Virus record (IMG/VR): IMGVR_UViG_3300005534_000002 | Direction: 5' to 3' (one strand) | DNA length: 64,000 nucleotides | Source of the DNA: an uncultured virus (IMG/VR IMGVR_UViG_3300005534_000002) | Taxonomy: Duplodnaviria > Heunggongvirae > Uroviricota > Caudoviricetes | Position numbers and translations under genes: made by a program | Part shown: in pieces, positions 6,258 through 60,055 of the stretch | Layout: the number at the start of each line of letters is the position of its first letter | Numbering within the stretch: position 1 is the stretch's first letter | The notes under the pieces: model-generated | Told to the model about the DNA's origin: nothing | What the model saw: the letters and a program-made list of their open reading frames with translations, nothing else | Databases searched by the model: none

Positions 6258-8978
6258 TTAGTACACGCGGACGTCGCTGATCCAGCTTTTCGGTGTGGAA
6301 GCCGCTCCGACCGACGCGCCGGCGCGGAGCGGAGTGGTAGAAGAGCTACTTGTGCCTGGCGTGATGTTCGTCCAGGAGGTTCCGCCGATGGGAGGATACT
6401 CTGGCCCGCCCTGAATCTCGTAGGTACAACTGGACGCTCCGAGAGTGAAGCGCAAGCGATAGATGGCACCCTGCGTGAATCCGCTCCCGACAGCGCCACG
6501 CGCCGTGCCGTTCTCGTAGGCTTGAAGCTGCGACCCACCGGACCCGTTGTTGCCAAAGTTGATGCCGTGAGCGAAGTTGGTGTAAGAGACACCAAGCGCG
6601 TCCATCCAGCCCACCATGACCTGATTCGTCCCTTGCGATGCTGCCTGTGGCACATAGACGTCTACGAGCATCTTCTTCCCGGAAGAGTGCGCCCACGACG
6701 ACTGCGTGTATAGCCCATTCGCTCCCCACGTGCTGTTACCAACAAGGTTTAGCCACTGGAAATTGGTGTCGATCTCCACGTTGCCGGCAGTGCTCTGGAC
6801 GCGCGTCCACTTGGTCGTCGTGTCGAGAGTCGCGCCCATGAAGTCGTCGCGGAAGCTGTATGGGGCCAGCGGATCGGTGACAGCGGACCACGTGCTTGGG
6901 AGGATGATGTACGACACGCCGGCGAGATTGCCCGCCGCCCCTGTGAAGGAGCTTTGCAACCCGCCAGCGAAGTTCTTGTTGATTGGGAACCTCATTTGAT
7001 GAGCGAATCGCTGCGTCGTGGTGTCGGCTACCTCGTCGTAGAGGTTGAGGCCGAATGGCGACAGGATGATCCACGCGAAGTCGAAACAGGTTGCTCCGGT
7101 AATGATCGAACCGTACGGACCCGGCAGTAGCGGGACAATCGTGGATGTCGTGGAGATGTACACATACTTCGTTGCGCTCGTCGCAATCTGATCGAGTCGC
7201 GAGTAGTAGGTGCTCATGGCATCCGCGTACGTCGGCTTCGTCGGGTCCAAGAACACCGCGATAGCCTGAGAGGCAAGTCCGTTCACGGTCACGCCTCTCA
7301 ACGGTATTGGCTGGCGAACGTCCCGAAGCTCGAAGCGACCATTACTCGCGATCGACGCATCCCAAGCTGCTAGGAGAAACTTGGTTGCGCTGCCGCTGAT
7401 GGTATAGGTAAACGTCCCGTACTGTACCGGCTCTATAGCGTCGGGCTCTAGCAGAGCGGCCAACTTCGTCCAGTAGGCCAGTTCGGTGGACAGCGGCAGA
7501 CTGGCGTTAGCGTTGTTCCACTTTGACGTGCCAGTGTTGTACATCGGCACCTGACCGTTTTGCAGTCCCGAGAGCGCCACGTCGGTCAGTGCTGCGTACG
7601 TTCCTGGCGCAAGCTGCCCGTTCAGTGTGATCGAGGTGATGCCGATGTACCCCACTGAGTAGCTAATGGACACCGTGCCGCCCATGTAGAGCGAAAACTC
7701 GATGTAGTCGCCGGCGTTCAGGTGCCCGGTCCAACTAAGGCTCTTGTACGTTTGTGTGGACGAGTTAAAGAAACTGTCTAGGATGTCGAGCGTCGTGCCA
7801 CCGTTCTTGAGCATCCTGAAGTAGTTGGTCGTCGTGTTATCGCCAATGCCAGGCAGCAAGCCGCACGTGATGGTGTAGATGCCGGCCACATCGAAGTCGA
7901 TTCGGCTGGAGTGCGTGCCGTCGATGTGAATATGACCACTGCCGTCAGCGCCGGTGGCTGCGCCCGGAGAGATCGTGCTCCATGATGCGTAGAGCGTTCC
8001 GTTGTCGCCCGTCCCGGAGATGTTGTCCCAATAGGCGTACATCGTCGTGGCTTGCGTTTGGTAGGTAGGCTTCTGCCCTGCGCCGTTCGCAGTGAGCACC
8101 TGACCCGCTGTGCCGTCTGCGTAGTTCTTCCACTTGCCGGTGGCGCTTTCGTAGACGAGGATATCGCCGTTCGCCAGCGATGTCTCGACCACGTCTGTGA
8201 GGGTCGCCAGCGAGGTAGCAATTGCCTGCCAGGTGGGAAGCGTTGTGGGTCCGTTAGAGATGAGCGCGTAGCCCGATGTCCCGGCTGCGTAGTTCTTCCA
8301 CTTGCTCAGTGCGGCGTCATAGACGAGAATGTCGCCTTTCGCGATCGACGTGATCGTGACGTCAGAGAGGCCAGACAGCGCCTGCGCAATCGCCTGCCAG
8401 GTCGGGAGAGTACCGGCCCCGTTGGATATCAGAGCGTAGCCAGAGGTGCCTGCGGCGTAGTTCTTCCACTTCGAGATCGAACTATCATAGACGAGGATGT
8501 CGCCTTTCGCGAGGGATGTAAGCGTGACGTCAGTGTCGCCCGAGAGAGTGTTTGATCCGCTTGGTTTGTTCTTCCAGAGCGAGGTTGCGGTGTCGTAGGT
8601 GAGAACATCGCCGTTGTTCGGTGTGGTGATCGAGACATCCTGGTCGATCGTCAGCTTGGCTTGCGGGAACTGCACGAACTGGCCTAGCTCGTAGGCGGTA
8701 ACAACCTCGATGATCGGAGTCTGGTCAACGTGCGCGACAGGACTCGTGCCGTACTGCCCCCGAAGGACGCCGGTGTACGTTGGCCCGCCCGTATTGACGG
8801 CAGCAGGAACCGTTATGTACTCCTGCTCAATGATGATGTCGAAGGCTTTACCAGAAGGCGGCAAGACTGCTGCGCTCTGGACGGTGAGGGTCTGCGATCC
8901 CGAGCCGGACGGTAGACCGTTCGGTGGCATGTTAATCGTAGTGCGACCCTTGTTGGAAAACCCAACTATATCCGTCAT
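6258..8978 (-). CDS. tail fibre / receptor-binding protein
   Basis: 906 aa G/S/T-rich; tandem LxxLxDVxxxxxxxGDILVYD...KWKN repeats; C1q-like strand motif (GIYTIT...LNAGDYIEF); lectin-like C-terminus. Confidence 0.8.
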   Translation of the reverse strand: MTDIVGFSNKGRTTINMPPNGLPSGSGSQTLTVQSAAVLPPSGKAFDIIIEQEYITVPAAVNTGGPTYTGVLRGQYGTSPVAHVDQTPIIEVVTAYELGQFVQFPQAKLTIDQDVSITTPNNGDVLTYDTATSLWKNKPSGSNTLSGDTDVTLTSLAKGDILVYDSSISKWKNYAAGTSGYALISNGAGTLPTWQAIAQALSGLSDVTITSIAKGDILVYDAALSKWKNYAAGTSGYALISNGPTTLPTWQAIATSLATLTDVVETSLANGDILVYESATGKWKNYADGTAGQVLTANGAGQKPTYQTQATTMYAYWDNISGTGDNGTLYASWSTISPGAATGADGSGHIHIDGTHSSRIDFDVAGIYTITCGLLPGIGDNTTTNYFRMLKNGGTTLDILDSFFNSSTQTYKSLSWTGHLNAGDYIEFSLYMGGTVSISYSVGYIGITSITLNGQLAPGTYAALTDVALSGLQNGQVPMYNTGTSKWNNANASLPLSTELAYWTKLAALLEPDAIEPVQYGTFTYTISGSATKFLLAAWDASIASNGRFELRDVRQPIPLRGVTVNGLASQAIAVFLDPTKPTYADAMSTYYSRLDQIATSATKYVYISTTSTIVPLLPGPYGSIITGATCFDFAWIILSPFGLNLYDEVADTTTQRFAHQMRFPINKNFAGGLQSSFTGAAGNLAGVSYIILPSTWSAVTDPLAPYSFRDDFMGATLDTTTKWTRVQSTAGNVEIDTNFQWLNLVGNSTWGANGLYTQSSWAHSSGKKMLVDVYVPQAASQGTNQVMVGWMDALGVSYTNFAHGINFGNNGSGGSQLQAYENGTARGAVGSGFTQGAIYRLRFTLGASSCTYEIQGGPEYPPIGGTSWTNITPGTSSSSTTPLRAGASVGAASTPKSWISDVRVY
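8060..8640 (-). repeat. intragenic tandem repeat (~171-nt unit, about 3.5 copies) in the tail fibre
   Basis: GCGTAGTTCTTCCACTT recurs near 8119, 8288 and 8455; protein units DVxxTSxAKGDILVYD..SKWKNYAAGTSGYALISNG. Confidence 0.85.
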
Positions 8979-36954: not shown

Positions 36955-38385
36955 TTAGTCGGTCCTACTGTGGCGGTTAACCCACTTGCTGCCCGACCCC
37001 GCGACCGCACCGGGCGCAACGAGCCGGAATCTCTTTTCTGCGTACATCACAGCATACCGCATGGCGTCGCAGCCGTGATTGTGCTCATCAAGCGGAAGCT
37101 CTTTCATCGACTGTCCCTGACGGCGCTTGTCTTCTGGAGGCCAGGCGTAAACATTTATCTCTTCCGCCAGACATGACGGCATTCCTCGATCTGTGAGCGC
37201 AGTCTCTTTATTGACAAGCGCGTCGCGCATGATGAACAAGCGAGGCTTGCCGGTGCGCTCGTCTACGCGCAGCCGCTTCTGTACCGCTTCGATGCCGGGG
37301 ATGATGGCCTTGCGGGCTTTGACGGTGTAGATGCCCTCGTTCTGGAGCGTGGCGCGATCCTCCGAGTCGTGGTCAGCGACCGTGGCCTCGAAGTACGCCT
37401 TGCCTGAGAGCCGTTTGATGTTCCGGGCGTGGTCCGACACGATCATTTGTGTGCGATACCACTCGCGATACAGGTACATCGCGCCGTCGTTGTCGAACGC
37501 CCACCACTGACAGGTGAAGGGATTGACGAAGCCGAAGTCGATGGAGCGGACACGCCGCCAACCGTCCGGTATCTTGAACGAGTCGATGATGTGAATGTCG
37601 GCGCTAAACTCCTCGTACACGATCCCTTCGGCAGCGACCCAGCGGCCCTCGTAGAGTCTGGCACGTCTGACGCCGGTAAGACTCATCAGCTTGCGCATGT
37701 ACTTCTCGCCTTGAGGCGTAAGCTGACTCTGGCGATCGTAGAGCTTCGGGTTGTCCACGTGAAGGGACACGAGCATCGTCAGCCCGCCGTTCTGATGCCG
37801 GCGCAGAATCCAGTGCCACGGTTCTTGCGGGTTTACGTCGCCCACGATCTGCTGAAACGGCATGACGTCGTGGCGCAAGCGAGTCGTCAGGGTTTCCCAA
37901 TCGCTCTCTTTGACCTCGTTGGCCTCCTGGACGTAGATGATGTCGTAGTCAGTGGAAAGTACTTTGCTGATGACATCCAGACCGCCGACGATCAAGCTAG
38001 AGCCGTTGGGGTACACAAACCTTGCCGGCTCGGACTTGCTGCCACCATAGAAAAAGACACCGTCGAGACGGTGGAGCACGTGGTCCCTATACGTCACAAG
38101 GCCAGACTCGGTGAGGCTGACCAGGGTCTTGCGGGCGATCAGGGCGCGAGTCCCAGGGAACCTGGAGAGCAGGAAGTGAAAGTACTCTAGGATGCCGCGT
38201 GACTTGCCGGTGCCAGCGGGTCCTGAGAGCATGACCTCGTCGTCGCGGCAGCTAAACAGCTTCGAGACAGCCCCTCGCGCCTCGAACTCGACTAACTCGC
38301 CGTCCTTGCCCACGAGTCCGTCTGGACCCATGAGCAGCTTGGCGTCAGCGTATTCGCTTTCAGAGAGTTGTCGAGTCTCGGCCAT
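36955..38385 (-). CDS. terL: terminase large subunit
   Basis: Walker A GPAGTGKS, Walker B IYVQEA, DVNP, nuclease motifs SIDFGF and HGCDAMRY. Confidence 0.95.
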   Translation of the reverse strand: MAETRQLSESEYADAKLLMGPDGLVGKDGELVEFEARGAVSKLFSCRDDEVMLSGPAGTGKSRGILEYFHFLLSRFPGTRALIARKTLVSLTESGLVTYRDHVLHRLDGVFFYGGSKSEPARFVYPNGSSLIVGGLDVISKVLSTDYDIIYVQEANEVKESDWETLTTRLRHDVMPFQQIVGDVNPQEPWHWILRRHQNGGLTMLVSLHVDNPKLYDRQSQLTPQGEKYMRKLMSLTGVRRARLYEGRWVAAEGIVYEEFSADIHIIDSFKIPDGWRRVRSIDFGFVNPFTCQWWAFDNDGAMYLYREWYRTQMIVSDHARNIKRLSGKAYFEATVADHDSEDRATLQNEGIYTVKARKAIIPGIEAVQKRLRVDERTGKPRLFIMRDALVNKETALTDRGMPSCLAEEINVYAWPPEDKRRQGQSMKELPLDEHNHGCDAMRYAVMYAEKRFRLVAPGAVAGSGSKWVNRHSRTD

Positions 38386-38488
38386 GACCGCTCCTTTTGC
38401 GGCCACGCAGGGCATGAACCAGCATGAACAAGTCTATGGCGAACTGGATCGCCTGGAGCACCGAGAAGCCGATGACGAACGGCATCAT
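38360..38488 (-). CDS. small single-TM protein (not in ORF track)
   Basis: MMPFVIGFSVLQAIQFAIDLFMLVHALRGRK..., ATGA-coupled to upstream gene. Confidence 0.45.
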   Translation of the reverse strand: MMPFVIGFSVLQAIQFAIDLFMLVHALRGRKRSGHGRDSTTL

Positions 38489-44165: not shown

Positions 44166-44426
44166 ATGGAATCTCAGCACAGAAACGGGAGCAGGAAACA
44201 CTACCACGCCATGAGCGGAACGCCGGGGTGCATCCCTGACTACAACGCTCACTGCGAGACTATGGACATCGCCGTGAGCAGTCTCACTGACTTGTTCGAG
44301 CTTTCCGACGACGAGCAGAGCGAACTGGAAGATCGCCGCTTCATCTGGCTCAATCCCGACCGGGGAGCGAGCTACGCAGAGGTCGCGTGCTGCACTGACA
44401 CCTGCGATCCGTTCCAGTTCGACTAG
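44166..44426 (+). CDS. acidic hypothetical protein
   Basis: AAGGAG RBS; HAMSGTPGCIPD motif. Confidence 0.65.
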   Translation: MESQHRNGSRKHYHAMSGTPGCIPDYNAHCETMDIAVSSLTDLFELSDDEQSELEDRRFIWLNPDRGASYAEVACCTDTCDPFQFD

Positions 44427-50522: not shown

Positions 50523-50933
50523 ATGAGCGAAGACAAAGACGCCCAAGACAAGACCGTGGAAGCTGAGGCCAGAGCCGCGCAAGAACAACTCATGAAGTTT
50601 CTGGCATGGCAGAAGACGGACGCCGCCGAGGGTAGCGACAGCTTCGAGCGCTCACTGCTCGCACTGGCCGCGAAGACGCAGTCACAGATCATCGAACTGT
50701 ACATGCGAGCCAAGGCCATAACGATGTACTCGCACGAAACCGAAGACCCGAGCGTCGTGGTGATCGCCAGCGAACTGAGCGGTTCGCTCCGTTCGGTTCG
50801 CGCGGCTTTCCACGAGGCCATAGACGACTACCTCTCAGAGCGCAGAGCCGTCGCCGCCGTTCATGCGGGTCAGGCTCTGGCCGAGATGATGCGTCAGGCT
50901 CCCAAGTCAAACGGAGGAAATCATGGCAATTGA
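50523..50933 (+). CDS. hypothetical helical protein
   Basis: GAGGGAG RBS before ATG 50523 (longer start 50394 possible). Confidence 0.6.
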   Translation: MSEDKDAQDKTVEAEARAAQEQLMKFLAWQKTDAAEGSDSFERSLLALAAKTQSQIIELYMRAKAITMYSHETEDPSVVVIASELSGSLRSVRAAFHEAIDDYLSERRAVAAVHAGQALAEMMRQAPKSNGGNHGN

Positions 50934-52596
50934 TCGAACCGCATCACAGATCATCACCACGCTTGATGAGCGCGTCCGGGCACGCATTCCTCTGATGGCC
51001 GTCGTGACTCACGAGGAGCAGAGGTTCCTGCGCATCGTCCAGGCGCTCAAGCGATACGTCGATCCCATCACCGGAGGGCGACGCCACCAGGATAAGGTTC
51101 TCTACGTCTGGAGCCGCACACGCGGGATGCGCAAGGTGGACCCGGACGGCAACACCGTCATGGAGTACCAGGACACGAGCGATCCGATGGGGGCACTGGA
51201 GTTCATCGAGAAACTTGGCTCGCACGACGGGCCTGCCGACGAGACGGCTCGCGGGCTTTTCGTGCTGTGCGACTTCGCTCAGTACCTTGAACCGTACGCC
51301 GGCCAACAGGAGCACGTCCCGATCCGGGCGCTGCGCGAACTGGCGTGGGCTATACAGGCTCGCCACATCAACGTGTTCGTCGTGGGCGCGGTCTTCCCTG
51401 ACATCCTGGATTTGGAGAAAGAGGTTCACACCATCGACTTGCCCCTGCCCAACGACGACGAGCTAGCCGCTCTGCTCGATCGCGCCCTGGAAGAGTTCGC
51501 GGATACGTTCCCTGGAAAGGAACGTGTGTCGGGCGACCGAGCGACCTACGAGAAACTTGTTGGCGCTATGGTCGGCCTGACCGAGAACGAAGCTGAGGCC
51601 GCGCTCAATATCGCGTTCATCCGCAACGGGTGTATGGACGCGCAAGCCATCCCGGTGGTCCTGGAGCAGAAGCGTGAGGCCATTCGCCGTAGCGGCTCGC
51701 TGGAGTTCGTGGAGCCACAGCCACTGCAAAACTTCGGCGGCTACGAGCGCATCATCGAACTGGTGAAGGGCGCGGCGGCGACGTTCATGCCAGAGGCGAA
51801 AGCTTTTGGCATCGAGCCGCACAAGGGGTTCTTGCTCCTCGGCCCGCCAGGCTGCGGCAAGAGCTACCTCATGCAGATCATCTCGGGCGTGACGTCGCGC
51901 GCTCTGCTCAGGATGTCACTCGCTGCCGTCATGGGCGAGGGTGGCGGCATCGTCGGCCAGTCGTGGGCGTCCGCTCGTAGGGCGCTGCAACTGGCGGATG
52001 CGCTCCAGCCAGTGCTAGGGATTGACGAGTACGAGAAGGGCGCGGGTGGCGTCGAAAGCAGCGGACGCTCCGATGCGGGCGAGACGGCCAGAGCTATGGG
52101 CTACCTGCTCACGTGGCAGGCCGAGCAGCAAGGCACTATGGTCGTCGCCACGGCGAACGACGTTCGGCAACTCCGACCCGAGCAGATTCGGGAAGGTCGA
52201 TTCGGAGCGAAGATTTGGGTCGGGCTGCCCGAGCACGAAGACCGCAAAAAGATTTTCGGTGTTCATCTCCAGAAACGGGGACGAGCGCCAGGGCAGTTCA
52301 GCCTCGACAAGCTGGCCGAGATGTCCGAGCGTTTCTCCGGGGCCGAGATCGAACAGGCGGTCAAGAACGCGCTGCTCTACGCCTTCATGGATGGTGGCGG
52401 GGAACGTGGTCTGTCTCCCGCAGACCTGGAGCGCGGAATCAAGGACATCACACCGACCGGGCTCGTCAACAAGAAAGAGATTGACGACCTAGAGCGATGG
52501 GCCGAGGAAAAGCTGGGCGCTGTGAGCGCATCCAGCAAGGAACTGTCTTTGACGGGACAGCGGCCCGGATCGATCGCAGCCATCGAAGTGGCATAG
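50923..52596 (+). CDS. AAA+ ATPase, Ycf46-like
   Basis: Walker A GPPGCGKS, Walker B LGIDEYEK, ATAND, IREGRF; degenerate N-terminal ATPase (THEEQR..LCDF). Confidence 0.9.
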   Translation: MAIDRTASQIITTLDERVRARIPLMAVVTHEEQRFLRIVQALKRYVDPITGGRRHQDKVLYVWSRTRGMRKVDPDGNTVMEYQDTSDPMGALEFIEKLGSHDGPADETARGLFVLCDFAQYLEPYAGQQEHVPIRALRELAWAIQARHINVFVVGAVFPDILDLEKEVHTIDLPLPNDDELAALLDRALEEFADTFPGKERVSGDRATYEKLVGAMVGLTENEAEAALNIAFIRNGCMDAQAIPVVLEQKREAIRRSGSLEFVEPQPLQNFGGYERIIELVKGAAATFMPEAKAFGIEPHKGFLLLGPPGCGKSYLMQIISGVTSRALLRMSLAAVMGEGGGIVGQSWASARRALQLADALQPVLGIDEYEKGAGGVESSGRSDAGETARAMGYLLTWQAEQQGTMVVATANDVRQLRPEQIREGRFGAKIWVGLPEHEDRKKIFGVHLQKRGRAPGQFSLDKLAEMSERFSGAEIEQAVKNALLYAFMDGGGERGLSPADLERGIKDITPTGLVNKKEIDDLERWAEEKLGAVSASSKELSLTGQRPGSIAAIEVA

Positions 52597-54338: not shown

Positions 54339-54560
54339 ATGGAAGCTGACAAGCCCATCGAAGTCGAGATTCGGCTACGGGAAAGAGCCACAGAAACAAT
54401 GGCGAGCAGAGTCGCGGCGATCCTCCAGCACGACGTTGACGTCGAGTGCGTCCCGGCGTGCGGTCTGGCGATGCGTGCCTTGTTCGCTCTGTCCAAGGGT
54501 AACTTCCTGCAAGCGCGGCAACTACTCGAACGCGCAGAAAGAGAGCGAAACAATGCCTGA
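54339..54560 (+). CDS. hypothetical protein
   Basis: 73 aa, GAGGT RBS. Confidence 0.55.
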   Translation: MEADKPIEVEIRLRERATETMASRVAAILQHDVDVECVPACGLAMRALFALSKGNFLQARQLLERAERERNNA

Positions 54561-55203
54561 GTTGATCTTCATTCAAGACGGAACCGGATCACTCACCGTC
54601 GAAGGTATGAGCGAAGCGGACTTCATGGCACTGGCGGCTGACCTGTTGCCGACGCCGACCGAAGTGAACTGCGGTATCCCGCGCCGCAAGCTCGTGCCCG
54701 CACCGAGCGTCGGCAGTCTACGTGTCCACGCGATCTGGCATGGCAGTGTCGTGGAGGGTCCGGGCGTCCGCTCGGTGTTGCAAGTACAGGGTTGCCCCAT
54801 CCGCTGCGCAGGGTGCTACGTGCCCGAAACGCACGCTGCGGGCACGGGCGTTACCATGTCCAGTGTCGATGCCGTCGCGTCCCTCTTGGACCCGTTTTTG
54901 AAGCGTGATGGCGTGACTGTTCTCGGTGGCGAGCCACTCGCTCAGGCGGACGCGCTGCTGCCGGTTCTTGAATCGCTCGTGGCGTGGGGGGTCCATACGG
55001 TGCTGTACACCGGCTACACGATCGAGCGCATCGCGAAACACGGAACACCCGCACAGAAACGGTGCCTGCTACTAGCCGACATGGTCATCGACGGACCATA
55101 CGTGAAAGCGTTGTCTGATGGCGCTGGCGAATGGCGCGGCAGCCGGAACCAGCGGGTCCTGAGCAAGACCGAGGTCCGGTCCCTGATGGGAGGAGCGTCG
55201 TGA
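54553..55203 (+). CDS. radical SAM protein, NrdG-like (4Fe-4S single cluster)
   Basis: EGPGVR, QGCPIRCAGC, LGGEP, YTGY, DMVIDGPY, WRGSRNQR. Confidence 0.9.
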   Translation: MPELIFIQDGTGSLTVEGMSEADFMALAADLLPTPTEVNCGIPRRKLVPAPSVGSLRVHAIWHGSVVEGPGVRSVLQVQGCPIRCAGCYVPETHAAGTGVTMSSVDAVASLLDPFLKRDGVTVLGGEPLAQADALLPVLESLVAWGVHTVLYTGYTIERIAKHGTPAQKRCLLLADMVIDGPYVKALSDGAGEWRGSRNQRVLSKTEVRSLMGGAS

Positions 55204-55743: not shown

Positions 55744-56198
55744 TGAGAGAGGGTAGACTGCAACCCGAGAACGATCAAGAGTGCTCGATCGTGGACTACC
55801 TGCGGGTCATCGCGGACGGTATGCCGAACGCTCATCCCGACTTCCGGGCGCTGCTCGACAAGGGTCGGTTCTGGACACCGCAGCCGCTCCCGCGAGAGTA
55901 CGAACTAGCTACGCCGAAACAGTGCTTCAAGAACGCGGGACAACTCAGCCTGGTCCACACAGAGCTTCGCTACTGCGAGGGCTACGCTCTCGGCTTTGTC
56001 ATCCCGGTCCATCATGCGTGGCTCGTTGACGAGAGCGGCATGGTGATTGACCCGACCTGGAGGATCAAGCCGCGCGGTCGCAAGAATGTTCATGATCCAG
56101 CCGACCTGGGCTACTTCGGGATCGTCTACGAGCAGGGACGGTTCTGGGAGATAATCCGGCAACGGGGTCGTTGGGGCACACTCTTCGCATGGGGGTAG
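55743..56198 (+). CDS. papain/transglutaminase-like fold protein
   Basis: KQCFKNA, YCEGY, HHAW, VIDPTW: Cys-His-Asp order. Confidence 0.65.
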   Translation: MREGRLQPENDQECSIVDYLRVIADGMPNAHPDFRALLDKGRFWTPQPLPREYELATPKQCFKNAGQLSLVHTELRYCEGYALGFVIPVHHAWLVDESGMVIDPTWRIKPRGRKNVHDPADLGYFGIVYEQGRFWEIIRQRGRWGTLFAWG

Positions 56199-56212
56199 AA
56201 AGGGGCAGAAAC

Positions 56213-56479
56213 ATGGATGACCGATACTCACGTCCCGTAAAGATTTTCTGAGCAGTCGTCGTGCGGTACGGTCGTACCCTCGAAGACGGCTTCCTGCCTG
56301 TGTTCAGCGTGAACACCGAGGAAGAGGCGAAGCGACTGCTAGTGCTTGCCTGCCCCATCAACCTGGAGGGCGAGTATGTCGCGGCAGAGTTGGTCCACGA
56401 GCAGACCTTCGAGAACCTACAGGCGTTCAGCGACAGACTCGCATCAATCTGGCAAATGCTCAACAAGGACAAGCAATGA
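56213..56479 (+). CDS. candidate selenoprotein (in-frame TGA at codon 13); otherwise readthrough gene or pseudogene
   Basis: Start motif GGGGCAGAAACATG; ATG 56213 is in frame with ORF 56261-56479 across TGA 56249-56251; SECIS-like hairpin follows. Confidence 0.6.
56249..56291 (+). promoter_or_regulatory. bacterial SECIS-like hairpin
   Basis: TGA, then GGTAC-GGTC-GTACC with the loop 18 nt downstream; lower stem AGTCGTC/GACGGCT. Confidence 0.55.
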
Positions 56480-56829
56480 ACACCACGGAAACCAATCAAG
56501 CCAACCCGTACGCCGGCCTGGTTGAGCCACTGTACGCTCTCCAGGAGGAACTGATTGACCAAGCTGACTACTTCGACATCGAGGCAGGTCGCTTACTCGG
56601 TGACGCGGGAGCCATAGACAGAAACGGGATCAAGGACGTGAACATGAAAACACGATTCATCCGCCTGCGTGAACAGGCAGACTACCTGCGCTACCACGCC
56701 CAGATCATCGAGAGCGCAGCCAAGATATGCGCTGGGCGCGGATCAGCAGCAGAACTGACACCCGCGCCGTTTGTCCTGCCAACCGGATGGACGGCGCTCC
56801 CATACTCATTCATGGAGTCGTGGGCATGA
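56476..56829 (+). CDS. hypothetical protein
   Basis: 117 aa, ATGA overlaps. Confidence 0.65.
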   Translation: MNTTETNQANPYAGLVEPLYALQEELIDQADYFDIEAGRLLGDAGAIDRNGIKDVNMKTRFIRLREQADYLRYHAQIIESAAKICAGRGSAAELTPAPFVLPTGWTALPYSFMESWA

Positions 56830-59339: not shown

Positions 59340-59475
59340 AACCAGACCACGGCTCAAGACCCAGCCGCGCCTGAAGCAGCTACCGCGAGTGGCGAGGATC
59401 GAGCGCCCTGAGCCTAAGCCGCCAGGTCATCTCTTCCTCGCGATCCTGCTAGTGCATCTGCTCCACCGTAGGTGA
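59302..59475 (+). CDS. 57-aa cationic PRLK-repeat peptide (not in ORF track)
   Basis: AGGAGG RBS + GTG; four PRLK repeats encoded by differing synonymous codons. Confidence 0.65.
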   Translation: MQQPRLKQRPRLKTRPRLKTQPRLKQLPRVARIERPEPKPPGHLFLAILLVHLLHRR

Positions 59476-60055
59476 CGAAGTTGTAGAACCGGGGCGGGGG
59501 GAGCGGTGCGGGCGCAGTGTGGTGCCACCGTAACCCTCGCCCCTTCACGATCCGTCCGAAGGGGTCAAACTCAGCCTGAAAGGCGAGGTCGTTGAAGCCG
59601 TAGTAGGCGAAGACGCTGCCGTGCGTTGAGCCAGTCCGCTGGCTGTGGTCGCCGGCCTGAAAGTCGATGCGGTGGTCGGTGAAGCAGAGCAGCATGTCCC
59701 ACAGTGGCTGAAACCACTTAGTATCGGTTGTGTGTGAGTTGACGAGCACGATGCCGGCGAGGATGTTACCCTTGCGAATCTGGTCAACGAAGTGTTGCAC
59801 AAACTTCCCGGCCAGGTTGCCGTACGGCGGATTGAGCCACACGGTCCCATGCCAGTCGTGCTTCAGCCCGTCGTCTTCAGCCGTGTAAATCTTGCGTGCT
59901 CTGACCGTCTCGTTTGCTTTCGGGCATGACGCCGGATCAAGGTCGATCACGCCACCGAACGTCGCGCGGGCTGCCTCGATGTACTGCGCGGGCGTGTACC
60001 ACTCGTTCCCGCCTGATGCCACGATCCTTTGTGCGGCTGTCATCTGGCCGGTCAT
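59414..60055 (-). CDS. phage DNA N6-adenine methyltransferase
   Basis: EWYTP, IDLDPAS, DGL, WLNPPY, T...WFQ. Confidence 0.92.
   Translation of the reverse strand: MTGQMTAAQRIVASGGNEWYTPAQYIEAARATFGGVIDLDPASCPKANETVRARKIYTAEDDGLKHDWHGTVWLNPPYGNLAGKFVQHFVDQIRKGNILAGIVLVNSHTTDTKWFQPLWDMLLCFTDHRIDFQAGDHSQRTGSTHGSVFAYYGFNDLAFQAEFDPFGRIVKGRGLRWHHTAPAPLPPPRFYNFVTYGGADALAGSRGRDDLAA

Follow-up and report, generated by a model that had tools for sequence, protein, structure and literature searches.

The gene located at positions 56213-56479 of an uncultured Caudoviricetes genome probably encodes an 88-residue phage selenoprotein, in which selenocysteine (Sec) would be inserted at an in-frame UGA with the help of the SelB factor of the host. 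The stretch of DNA that was analysed, hereafter called the window, has a length of 64,000 nucleotides. Decoding of the UGA codon 56249-51 as Sec is strongly indicated by the comparison of homologous sequences. What the sequences show directly is a conserved TGA with coding sequence on either side, a covarying SECIS-type hairpin, a start located upstream of the TGA and homologs that carry Cys at the site; that SelB performs the decoding, and what chemistry the protein carries out, is inferred from these data. In the proposed scheme, the ribosomes would start at ATG 56213, the hairpin 56265-78 would recruit the host SelB-GTP-Sec-tRNA(Sec) complex at the UGA, selenocysteine would be inserted as residue 13 and the remaining codons would be translated up to the terminal TGA. 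If the UGA were not decoded as Sec, the product would be limited to a 12-residue peptide, so that expression should depend on a host provided with selABCD and selenium. A preliminary description of this DNA had suggested an 88-residue Sec protein of an unrecognised family, a proposal supported here by the TGA conservation, the covarying hairpin, the match with E. coli fdhF and the invariance of Cys47.

Start site, reading frame and conservation of the in-frame TGA

The frame opened by ATG 56213, which is seen within aaaGGGGcagaaacATG, was confirmed in the sequence: it runs through 12 sense codons (MDDRYSRPVKIF), TGA 56249-56251 and 75 more codons to the terminal TGA at 56477-56479 (Table 1). 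The second half of the 12-codon N-terminus corresponds to the conserved R-P-[IV]-K-I-[FY] and begins a beta strand. The start motif GGGGCAGAAACATG at 56202-56215 sets the ATG at 56213. It had been presented as associated with the starts of this phage and, searched with at most two mismatches, it gives 5 matches versus 0.46 expected, a number reached by none of 100 shuffles; the remaining four matches are found at the ATGs of head-to-tail plus-strand ORFs (44437, 45638, 45904 and 46227). ATG 56213 is the true start of the gene. At this place the table-11 ORF list contains only a 72-aa ORF from GTG 56261 (56261..56479). This GTG had been described as devoid of a ribosome-binding site, and no Shine-Dalgarno-like run is indeed present in the 20 nt upstream of it. 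The terminal TGA is part of an ATGA overlap, highlighting that TGA is an ordinary stop in the window phage.

Table 1. Position of the features of the putative selenoprotein gene in the window.
Feature	Position	Strand	Evidence
Ribosome-binding/start motif GGGGCAGAAAC plus ATG 56213	56202..56215	+	Motif enrichment; other matches at gene starts
Complete gene (88 codons, the recoded TGA among them) and its terminal TGA	56213..56479	+	Read-through frame; relatives; AlphaFold
N-terminal 12 codons (MDDRYSRPVKIF)	56213..56248	+	In-frame conservation; variation mostly at third codon positions
In-frame TGA, proposed selenocysteine codon (residue 13)	56249..56251	+	TGA in 71/71 distinct homologous 63-nt segments
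Longer stem-loop, C16 (56264) bulged, lower helices interrupted	56250..56292	+	MFE fold
Upper hairpin, stem GGUAC/GUACC, loop GGUC (56270-56273)	56265..56278	+	Folding, covariation, fdhF spacing
TGC codon of Cys47	56351..56353	+	Invariant column, 56-sequence alignment
ATGA overlap of the terminal TGA with the ATG of the next ORF (56476..56829)	56476..56479	+	

A first search with the read-through product retrieved 21 relatives of 68-95 aa, all unnamed and all called from the V-V-R-Y-G region just past the TGA. The DNA of relatives was obtained from viral contigs (19 loci), metagenome contigs (58), species genomes (1) and further viral contigs (7); the sources considered are 90 (89 loci and the window), some loci being one contig present in two collections. 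The tblastn alignments to this DNA extend across the N-terminal residues, and an in-frame stop is present at the equivalent site in 88 of the 90 sources (87 loci and the window), preceded by R-P-[IV]-K-I-[FY] and followed by A-V-x-V-R-[YF]-G in the relatives. All of the 71 distinct 63-nt segments carry TGA at the site, the homologous loci continuing in frame through the N-terminal residues with TGA at the equivalent codon, a point on which the preliminary description had made the Sec reading depend. The two sources lacking it are the locus L018, which matches the core only and has neither the Sec part nor an evident start, and L001, rejected as a spurious low-GC match. A sequencing error or a contig-specific pseudogene, which nothing beyond the bare stop codon would suggest, is refuted by the occurrence of the same TGA in 70 other distinct sequences from independent assemblies and can be practically dismissed; the TGA is not unique to this isolate.

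The terminal stops of the same genes are mixed (TGA 50, TAA 10 and TAG 8 in 68 genes), and an ordinary stop at the internal site is not expected to remain always TGA. Protein-level selection in one frame operates on both flanks of the TGA. The per-codon entropies (positions 1/2/3) are 0.55/0.42/1.11 for Lys-3 and 0.50/0/1.51 for Ile-2 on the upstream side, and 0/0/1.89 for Ala+1, 0.19/0/1.75 for Val+2 and 0/0/1.62 for Val+4 on the downstream side. When the upstream start was defined as the nearest ATG (else GTG or TTG) situated 8-30 codons ahead of the TGA, a Shine-Dalgarno-like 4-mer was found 4-17 nt ahead of it in 51 of 67 genes (a 5-mer in 29); such a 4-mer precedes the first post-TGA start codon in 1 case out of 48.

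These results bear on a second explanation, in which the TGA would be a real stop closing a leader of 10-29 residues, with re-initiation at the nearby GTG to give the 72-aa protein and with the hairpin acting as a regulatory or stability element. A restart codon (ATG, GTG or TTG) lies within four codons past the TGA in 44 of 64 relatives, and gene callers annotate the short form, 134/152 and 106/109 of the classified database proteins starting after the TGA. However, no ATG, GTG or TTG is present within 8 codons past the TGA in 19 of the 64 distinct relatives, so that their A-V-x-V-R-[YF]-G can be made only by ribosomes passing the TGA. Furthermore, Ala+1 and Val+2, which stand ahead of any restart, are (nearly) invariant with free third positions, the internal stop is never TAA or TAG whereas 18 of the 68 terminal stops are, the upstream peptide belongs to a confidently modelled strand, and sense-codon homologs exist at full length. 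Termination followed by re-initiation is on this evidence very improbable, and translation through the TGA, as Sec, is retained.

The hairpin downstream of the TGA

The arms GGTAC (56265-69) and GTACC (56274-78) enclose a GGTC loop 18 nt past the TGA, as stated in the preliminary description, and this hairpin corresponds to nt 17-30 counted from the U of the UGA. The MFE fold of the 48 nt from 56249 to 56296 (-19 kcal/mol) adds a G15-C31 pair, the bulged C16 that had been considered possible and three short lower helices. The continuous 7-bp lower stem AGTCGTC/GACGGCT of the preliminary description was not recovered, interrupted short helices being present in the MFE fold instead. The z-score of the 48-nt fold is only -1.97, and 7 of 200 shuffles fold equally well. 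In the consulted part of a review of prokaryotic selenoproteomes (PMC13188914), bacterial SECIS (bSECIS) elements are defined by a loop of 3-9 nt, a stem of 4-16 bp, a loop-UGA spacing of 16-37 nt, a loop with G at position 1 or 2, usually with G or U next, and an MFE of at most -7.5 kcal/mol. The window element lies within all these bounds, with its 4-nt loop GGUC, its 5-bp stem and its spacing of 18 nt, and its nt 10-42 have an MFE of -9.6 kcal/mol, under the -7.5 cut-off.

In the relatives, a hairpin was called when a stem of at least 4 bp closed a 4-5 nt loop starting with GGU at 16-34 nt from the UGA. A hairpin matching this rule is present in 54 of the 64 distinct relatives, at nt 22 in 49 of them and at nt 27 in 3. 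A GGTC loop at nt 22 is found in 40/64; 8 have GGTCC or GGTCG, and 3 have GGTC(A) at nt 27. In two relatives the hairpin was called at nt 17, but a GGGC loop at nt 22 is probable. The other 10 miss the rule, yet most of them fold into a hairpin at that place. Over the same loci, rule-type hairpins have a background frequency of 0.83 per kb, or about 0.01 for each site in the window.

Covariation was measured on 48 sequences with the GGTC loop, 39 of them distinct. The proportion of paired stem cells is 87.9% versus 67.9% in shuffles (reached by 0/500) and 24-45% with a slid partner, and the covariation score of the stem is 0.469 versus 0.166 in shuffles, again reached by 0/500. The hairpin is conserved with covariation in the TGA-bearing relatives, a feature whose absence would have spoken against the first interpretation. 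Among the 39 distinct sequences, the pair 8-15 switches between AU (25), UA (10) and UG (4), the pair 6-17 between GC (20) and CG (15), and the pair 4-19 between CG (20) and AU (9). At the codon level, the change TAC to TTC (Tyr to Phe) co-occurs with the synonymous change CGT to CGA (Arg), and the Arg codons CGG and AGG are accompanied by G and U, respectively, as first base of codon +10. As these pair switches involve synonymous sites, they are not explicable by selection on the protein. When all 64 sequences were analysed in the codon register the signal was weaker (76% paired, score 0.354 versus 0.164).

Other RNA tests gave negative results, which, like the modest z-score, weigh against the Sec reading. 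A scan of 56100-56500 against Rfam gave no SECIS family at E values up to 10, and only a chance ClpQY_promoter hit (E 2.9); short bacterial SECIS hairpins are poorly covered by Rfam-type covariance models. RNAalifold returned 0 consensus pairs on the MAFFT alignment of the 64 sequences, probably since register shifts between subgroups defeat this program. With the hairpin covariance model R1, the window element scores 31.9 bits and the next best site of the window 15.5; the same model, applied with E values up to 10 to a 20-kb E. coli locus, did not retrieve the fdhF SECIS.

The protein family and its phage context

AlphaFold2 was run on a 56-sequence alignment with Cys in place of Sec. The model of the 88-aa product has a mean pLDDT of 92.1 and a pTM of 0.81, with block means of 83 for residues 1-10 and 95 for residues 11-20, and predicts strands 9-14, 16-20 and 28-33 and helices 36-46, 58-62 and 66-85. 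According to the model, the segment upstream of the GTG is an integral strand (9-14) of the fold. No variation is seen in the 56 aligned read-through proteins at Sec13, Ala14, Val15, Val17, Gly20, Gly26 and Cys47. The model places Sec13 in the first beta strand and Cys47 directly after helix 36-46. The single further Cys (LACP) noticed earlier is this Cys47, a possible partner of Sec13, and its invariance extends over the whole alignment. Past the last helix, a G-x-C-x-C motif is present in 14/56 members, and many members have basic C-terminal tails. Sec13 and Cys47, with the G-x-C-x-C motif in a quarter of the members, would most likely form a redox-active or metal-binding site, a function suggested by the Sec/Cys pattern only.

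The protein belongs to a large family of small proteins, so far without annotation and carried by uncultured phages, and its predicted fold is of the alpha/beta type. No family was matched in Pfam, PHROGs or NCBIfam, the best E value of a PDB sequence search was 0.81, and Foldseek found nothing at E 0.001 or better in PDB and BFVD. The highest Z obtained with VIA-align among 48,161 chains was 4.2. A 2H-phosphoesterase fold, represented by several chains at Z 3.0-4.2, was rejected, these values being within noise by the tool's own notes. The protein atlas queried with the 72-aa table-11 ORF gave no usable match.

The residues occupying the site in proteins with a sense codon were collected by profile searches. 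The first search, on 1.84 billion representatives, gave 317 proteins at E 0.001 or better, and 152 sequences were classified (the best 150 of these 317, plus some cluster mates). The N-terminal part is missing in 134 of them, i.e. they were called after the stop. The 18 that span the site have Cys (7), Trp (5, in 3 clusters), Ala (3, in 2 clusters, the alignment of one cluster being ambiguous between Leu and Ala), Thr (2) or Gly (1), and three further listed homologs have His plus an insertion there. The second search gave 510 proteins at E 1e-6 or better; 109 of the 120 listed were new, and among these the N-terminal part is missing in 106, while the site is occupied by Cys in 2 and by Trp in 1. 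Combined, the sense codons among the matches listed are Cys 9 (P0025, P0026, P0084, P0115, P0125, P0136, P0164, P0175 and P0176), Trp 4, Thr 2, Ala 1-2 and Gly 1. The expectation that homologs would have Cys or TGA at position 13 is thus borne out in part: among the sense codons Cys is the most frequent, in line with a selenoprotein, although other residues also occur there, and Trp or variable residues at this position had been named in the preliminary description as an argument against the Sec reading. With a strictly catalytic Sec, Cys would be expected almost everywhere, and the Trp, Thr, Ala and Gly forms count against such a role. Most Cys forms are devoid of the R-[YF]-G-R-[TS] signature, which is retained by P0176. 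Searches of viral contigs for the DNA of the Thr form P0024 and of the Cys form P0025 were unsuccessful, L114 being a partial weak match.

In the Trp and Gly forms, the peptides compatible with the hairpin ([DNR][FY]GR[ST]) are preserved. P0067, one of the Trp forms, continues into an odd W-containing tail, and another (P0064) is similar to L089 and L090, both of which have TGA at the site. These Trp and Gly forms may be TGA codons called under table 4 or 25. The four Trp homologs and the Gly homolog among the matches listed could also be taken as the sign of a genetic code in which TGA has a sense meaning in these phages (similar to table 4 or 25, or through a phage suppressor tRNA), and one related phage record does possess a tRNA with a CUA anticodon, which is amber and not opal. 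This is hardly credible, given that the window gene and 50/68 relatives terminate with TGA, that the long genes of the window are intact under table 11, that the window contains no tRNA gene, and that each gene has a single TGA, always at the same site.

The same residues are relevant to another alternative. Near-cognate decoding of UGA yields Trp or Cys, and a programmed, SelB-independent read-through by such a tRNA, perhaps aided by the hairpin, would provide a low and regulated level of the 88-aa protein. The sense-codon homologs with Cys (9) and Trp (4) among the matches listed are in agreement with it, the site also accepts Thr, Ala and Gly, and exclusive TGA use is equally compatible. 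Moreover, no host Sec machinery could be shown, the bacterial bin G002 described below having no selA, selB or tRNA-Sec. Near-cognate read-through nevertheless leaves unexplained the bSECIS conformity and the precision of the fdhF-like loop and spacing, and the GGU loop is retained even in the 3 loci where the hairpin is shifted by 5 nt (nt 27). We know of no hairpin-stimulated UGA read-through in bacteria. This alternative is considered unlikely, and Sec insertion remains the preferred interpretation.

The window carries a terminase gene (36955-38415, minus strand) and, also on the minus strand, a Mu-type portal, a head protease and a 1892-aa ORF, and from about 42 kb onward an array of small plus-strand genes. 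The gene described here belongs to a group of small ORFs in the early region, and an NrdG-like radical-SAM gene lies about 1 kb upstream of it. The neighbouring genes are not kept in the relatives: out of nine, the upstream 177-aa ORF alone recurs, in 3/88 loci and not always adjacent. In a search of sequencing runs, the stretch was detected in one DNA run, labelled soil metagenome and probably its source, and in no RNA run. Phage records with a member of the family range from 49 to 153 kb. In the isolate-phage collection, neither DNA nor protein searches matched it, and in the nearest virus record (G001, a 44-kb fragment) the gene region is absent.

Among 185,579 species genomes a single locus was detected (L080), on a 67.8-kb contig of the bin G002. 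This contig carries phage genes only (MuF, capsid, baseplate J, amidase, YqaJ and methylases). The bin was rejected as host evidence, since the contig is linked to it through binning, a weak indication of host for a phage contig; no selB, selA or tRNA-Sec was found in the bin, its two hits to the tRNA-Sec model being a tRNA-Ser and a tRNA-Leu. In 25 related viral records, neither a tRNA-Sec above cut-off nor selD was detected (0 in each case), suggesting that the phages would depend on the machinery of their host.

Somewhat more likely than not is a wider interpretation in which these proteins would constitute a bacteriophage selenoprotein family with Sec as the rule (UGA in about 9/10 of the members) and a fold of no known relative, spread over hundreds of lineages of uncultured phages from soil, sediment and groundwater. 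The product would be an early protein gated by the Sec machinery and the selenium of the host, and the gene would mark the hosts as Sec users. In the covered portion of the full-text literature outside subscription journals, no report of a bacteriophage selenoprotein was found, and the words phage, virus and viral are absent from the 2026 prokaryotic selenoproteome review (PMC13188914) and from the BSepDB paper. If the UGA is selenocysteine, bacteriophages use the 21st amino acid, and do so via a family of their own and not via a captured host enzyme. Expression and host range would then be tied to host selABCD and selenium, providing a handle for host prediction, and a Sec-dominated family with an unmatched fold would hint at an undescribed selenium chemistry. 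In BSepDB, which covers over 64,000 genomes, 16,621 species have the Sec pathway, roughly a quarter. Gene callers systematically truncate the family, nearly all database entries beginning past the UGA, and phage selenoproteins would for this reason be invisible to standard annotation.

Comparison with known selenoprotein genes and UGA read-through

The proposed mechanism is canonical; what would be new is the protein family and its carriage by phages. In phage Q-beta, read-through of the coat-protein UGA gives the A1 protein, with Trp inserted and without any need for a SECIS-type hairpin. As in Q-beta, the longer product of the phage gene would require decoding of a UGA. The two Q-beta products, however, share a long N-terminal part, whereas the part of the window gene that precedes the UGA has only 12 residues.

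The only viral selenoproteins named in the consulted part of PMC8310308 are the glutathione peroxidases of poxviruses (molluscum contagiosum and fowlpox). They resemble the present candidate as selenoproteins encoded by a virus and decoded by its host, and the fowlpox SECIS is, according to the part consulted, also located in the coding region. They differ from it in belonging to viruses of eukaryotes, in using a eukaryotic SECIS and in deriving from a captured cellular gene whose function is known, whereas the phage gene has a bacterial-type SECIS and belongs to a family for which no cellular homolog was found in 185,579 species genomes.

FdnG-type formate dehydrogenase genes of bacteria are also comparable. 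Of 61 genomes sampled from the G002 family (labelled Xanthobacteraceae), 23 have selB above cut-off, and the FdnG-type genes of four selB-bearing genomes of this family have one in-frame TGA and an AGUC loop at nt 22-25. They share with the phage gene the single TGA and a small hairpin with G23-U24 at equal distance. They differ from it in being cellular and in coding for a known enzyme.

A further likeness is with E. coli fdhF (formate dehydrogenase H, UGA140), whose SECIS is the prototype for SelB-dependent Sec insertion. An identical GGUC loop at the same 18-nt spacing had been proposed for this gene, and the K-12 sequence agrees exactly: the loop is at nt 22-25, and GGU is the 7th codon past the UGA. 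Both genes have a UGA followed by a hairpin within the ORF, with the same loop position and codon phase, and both stems have a single bulge on the 5' side, C16 in the phage hairpin and U17 in fdhF. G23 and U24 are, we assume, the SelB contacts. The phage gene differs from fdhF by its stem sequence and closing pair (C-G in the phage, A-U in fdhF), by its unrelated protein and by its carriage on a phage, and its recognition by SelB is predicted. With its fdhF-like loop, the 14-nt hairpin is a compact natural candidate SECIS, directly testable in E. coli.

Small early genes and their surroundings

The sequence GG[AG]GCAGAA[ACT]CATG recurs in the window as a start signal, at positions 44426, 45627, 45893, 46216 and 56202 of the + strand, and the five small early genes which it precedes are arranged head-to-tail. 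This RBS-spacer-ATG unit is very uniform across the five genes. The small-gene region is flanked by the AAA+ ATPase and the Dam-type methyltransferase.

No NrdD-like large subunit was evident among the large ORFs of the window to accompany the NrdG-like protein. The presence of this activase either hints that the host is anaerobic or facultative, or reflects a role with some other enzyme. The record of a related phage carrying family locus L009 contains a tRNA of the amber-suppressor type, and TAG may be recoded in that phage.

Annotated features of the window and of the related phage record
Feature	Location	Strand	Annotation or score
AAA+ ATPase	50923-52596	+	PHROG 8638 (unknown function); 6.5e-90
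NrdG-like radical-SAM activase	54553-55203	+	Pfam Fer4_12, 2.9e-27; PHROG 'anaerobic ribonucleotide reductase small subunit'
Dam-type N6-adenine methyltransferase	59414-60055	-	
tRNA, anticodon CUA	L116 1499-1570 (record of L009)	-	ARAGORN label tRNA-Pyl

A second hairpin and a locus without TGA

The second-best match of the hairpin covariance model in the window was found at 6301-6318 on the - strand (15.5 bits, E 0.083). It presents a GGUC loop on a 6-bp stem and lies within the 3' end of a 906-aa ORF (6258..8978); because this ORF is open, no in-frame TGA precedes the hairpin. The match is probably due to chance.

The only family locus that lacks the conserved in-frame TGA is L018 (1470-1700), located in a record of 186.8 kb with terminal repeats (G078). 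Its conserved core begins K-G-F-L-P-V, the N-terminal strand is not recognisable and no start codon was found near the core. The upstream frame is open over 104 codons, of unlikely-looking sequence. Possible explanations are that the copy has degenerated or that it forms part of a fusion.

Variants at the C-terminus and at the selenocysteine site

A G-x-C-x-C motif ends the last helix in 14 of the 56 read-through proteins (for example those of L004, L009, L011, L015, L045, L049, L061 and L074) and is absent from the window's copy. This motif together with Sec13 and Cys47 would make four potential ligands. In a subgroup of database homologs (P0028, P0033 and P0089), which follow the pattern …KIYHGG…TPDHW…VIVGYG, the Sec-Ala-Val stretch is replaced by His-Gly-Gly and an insertion of about 14 residues, a different solution at the Sec site.
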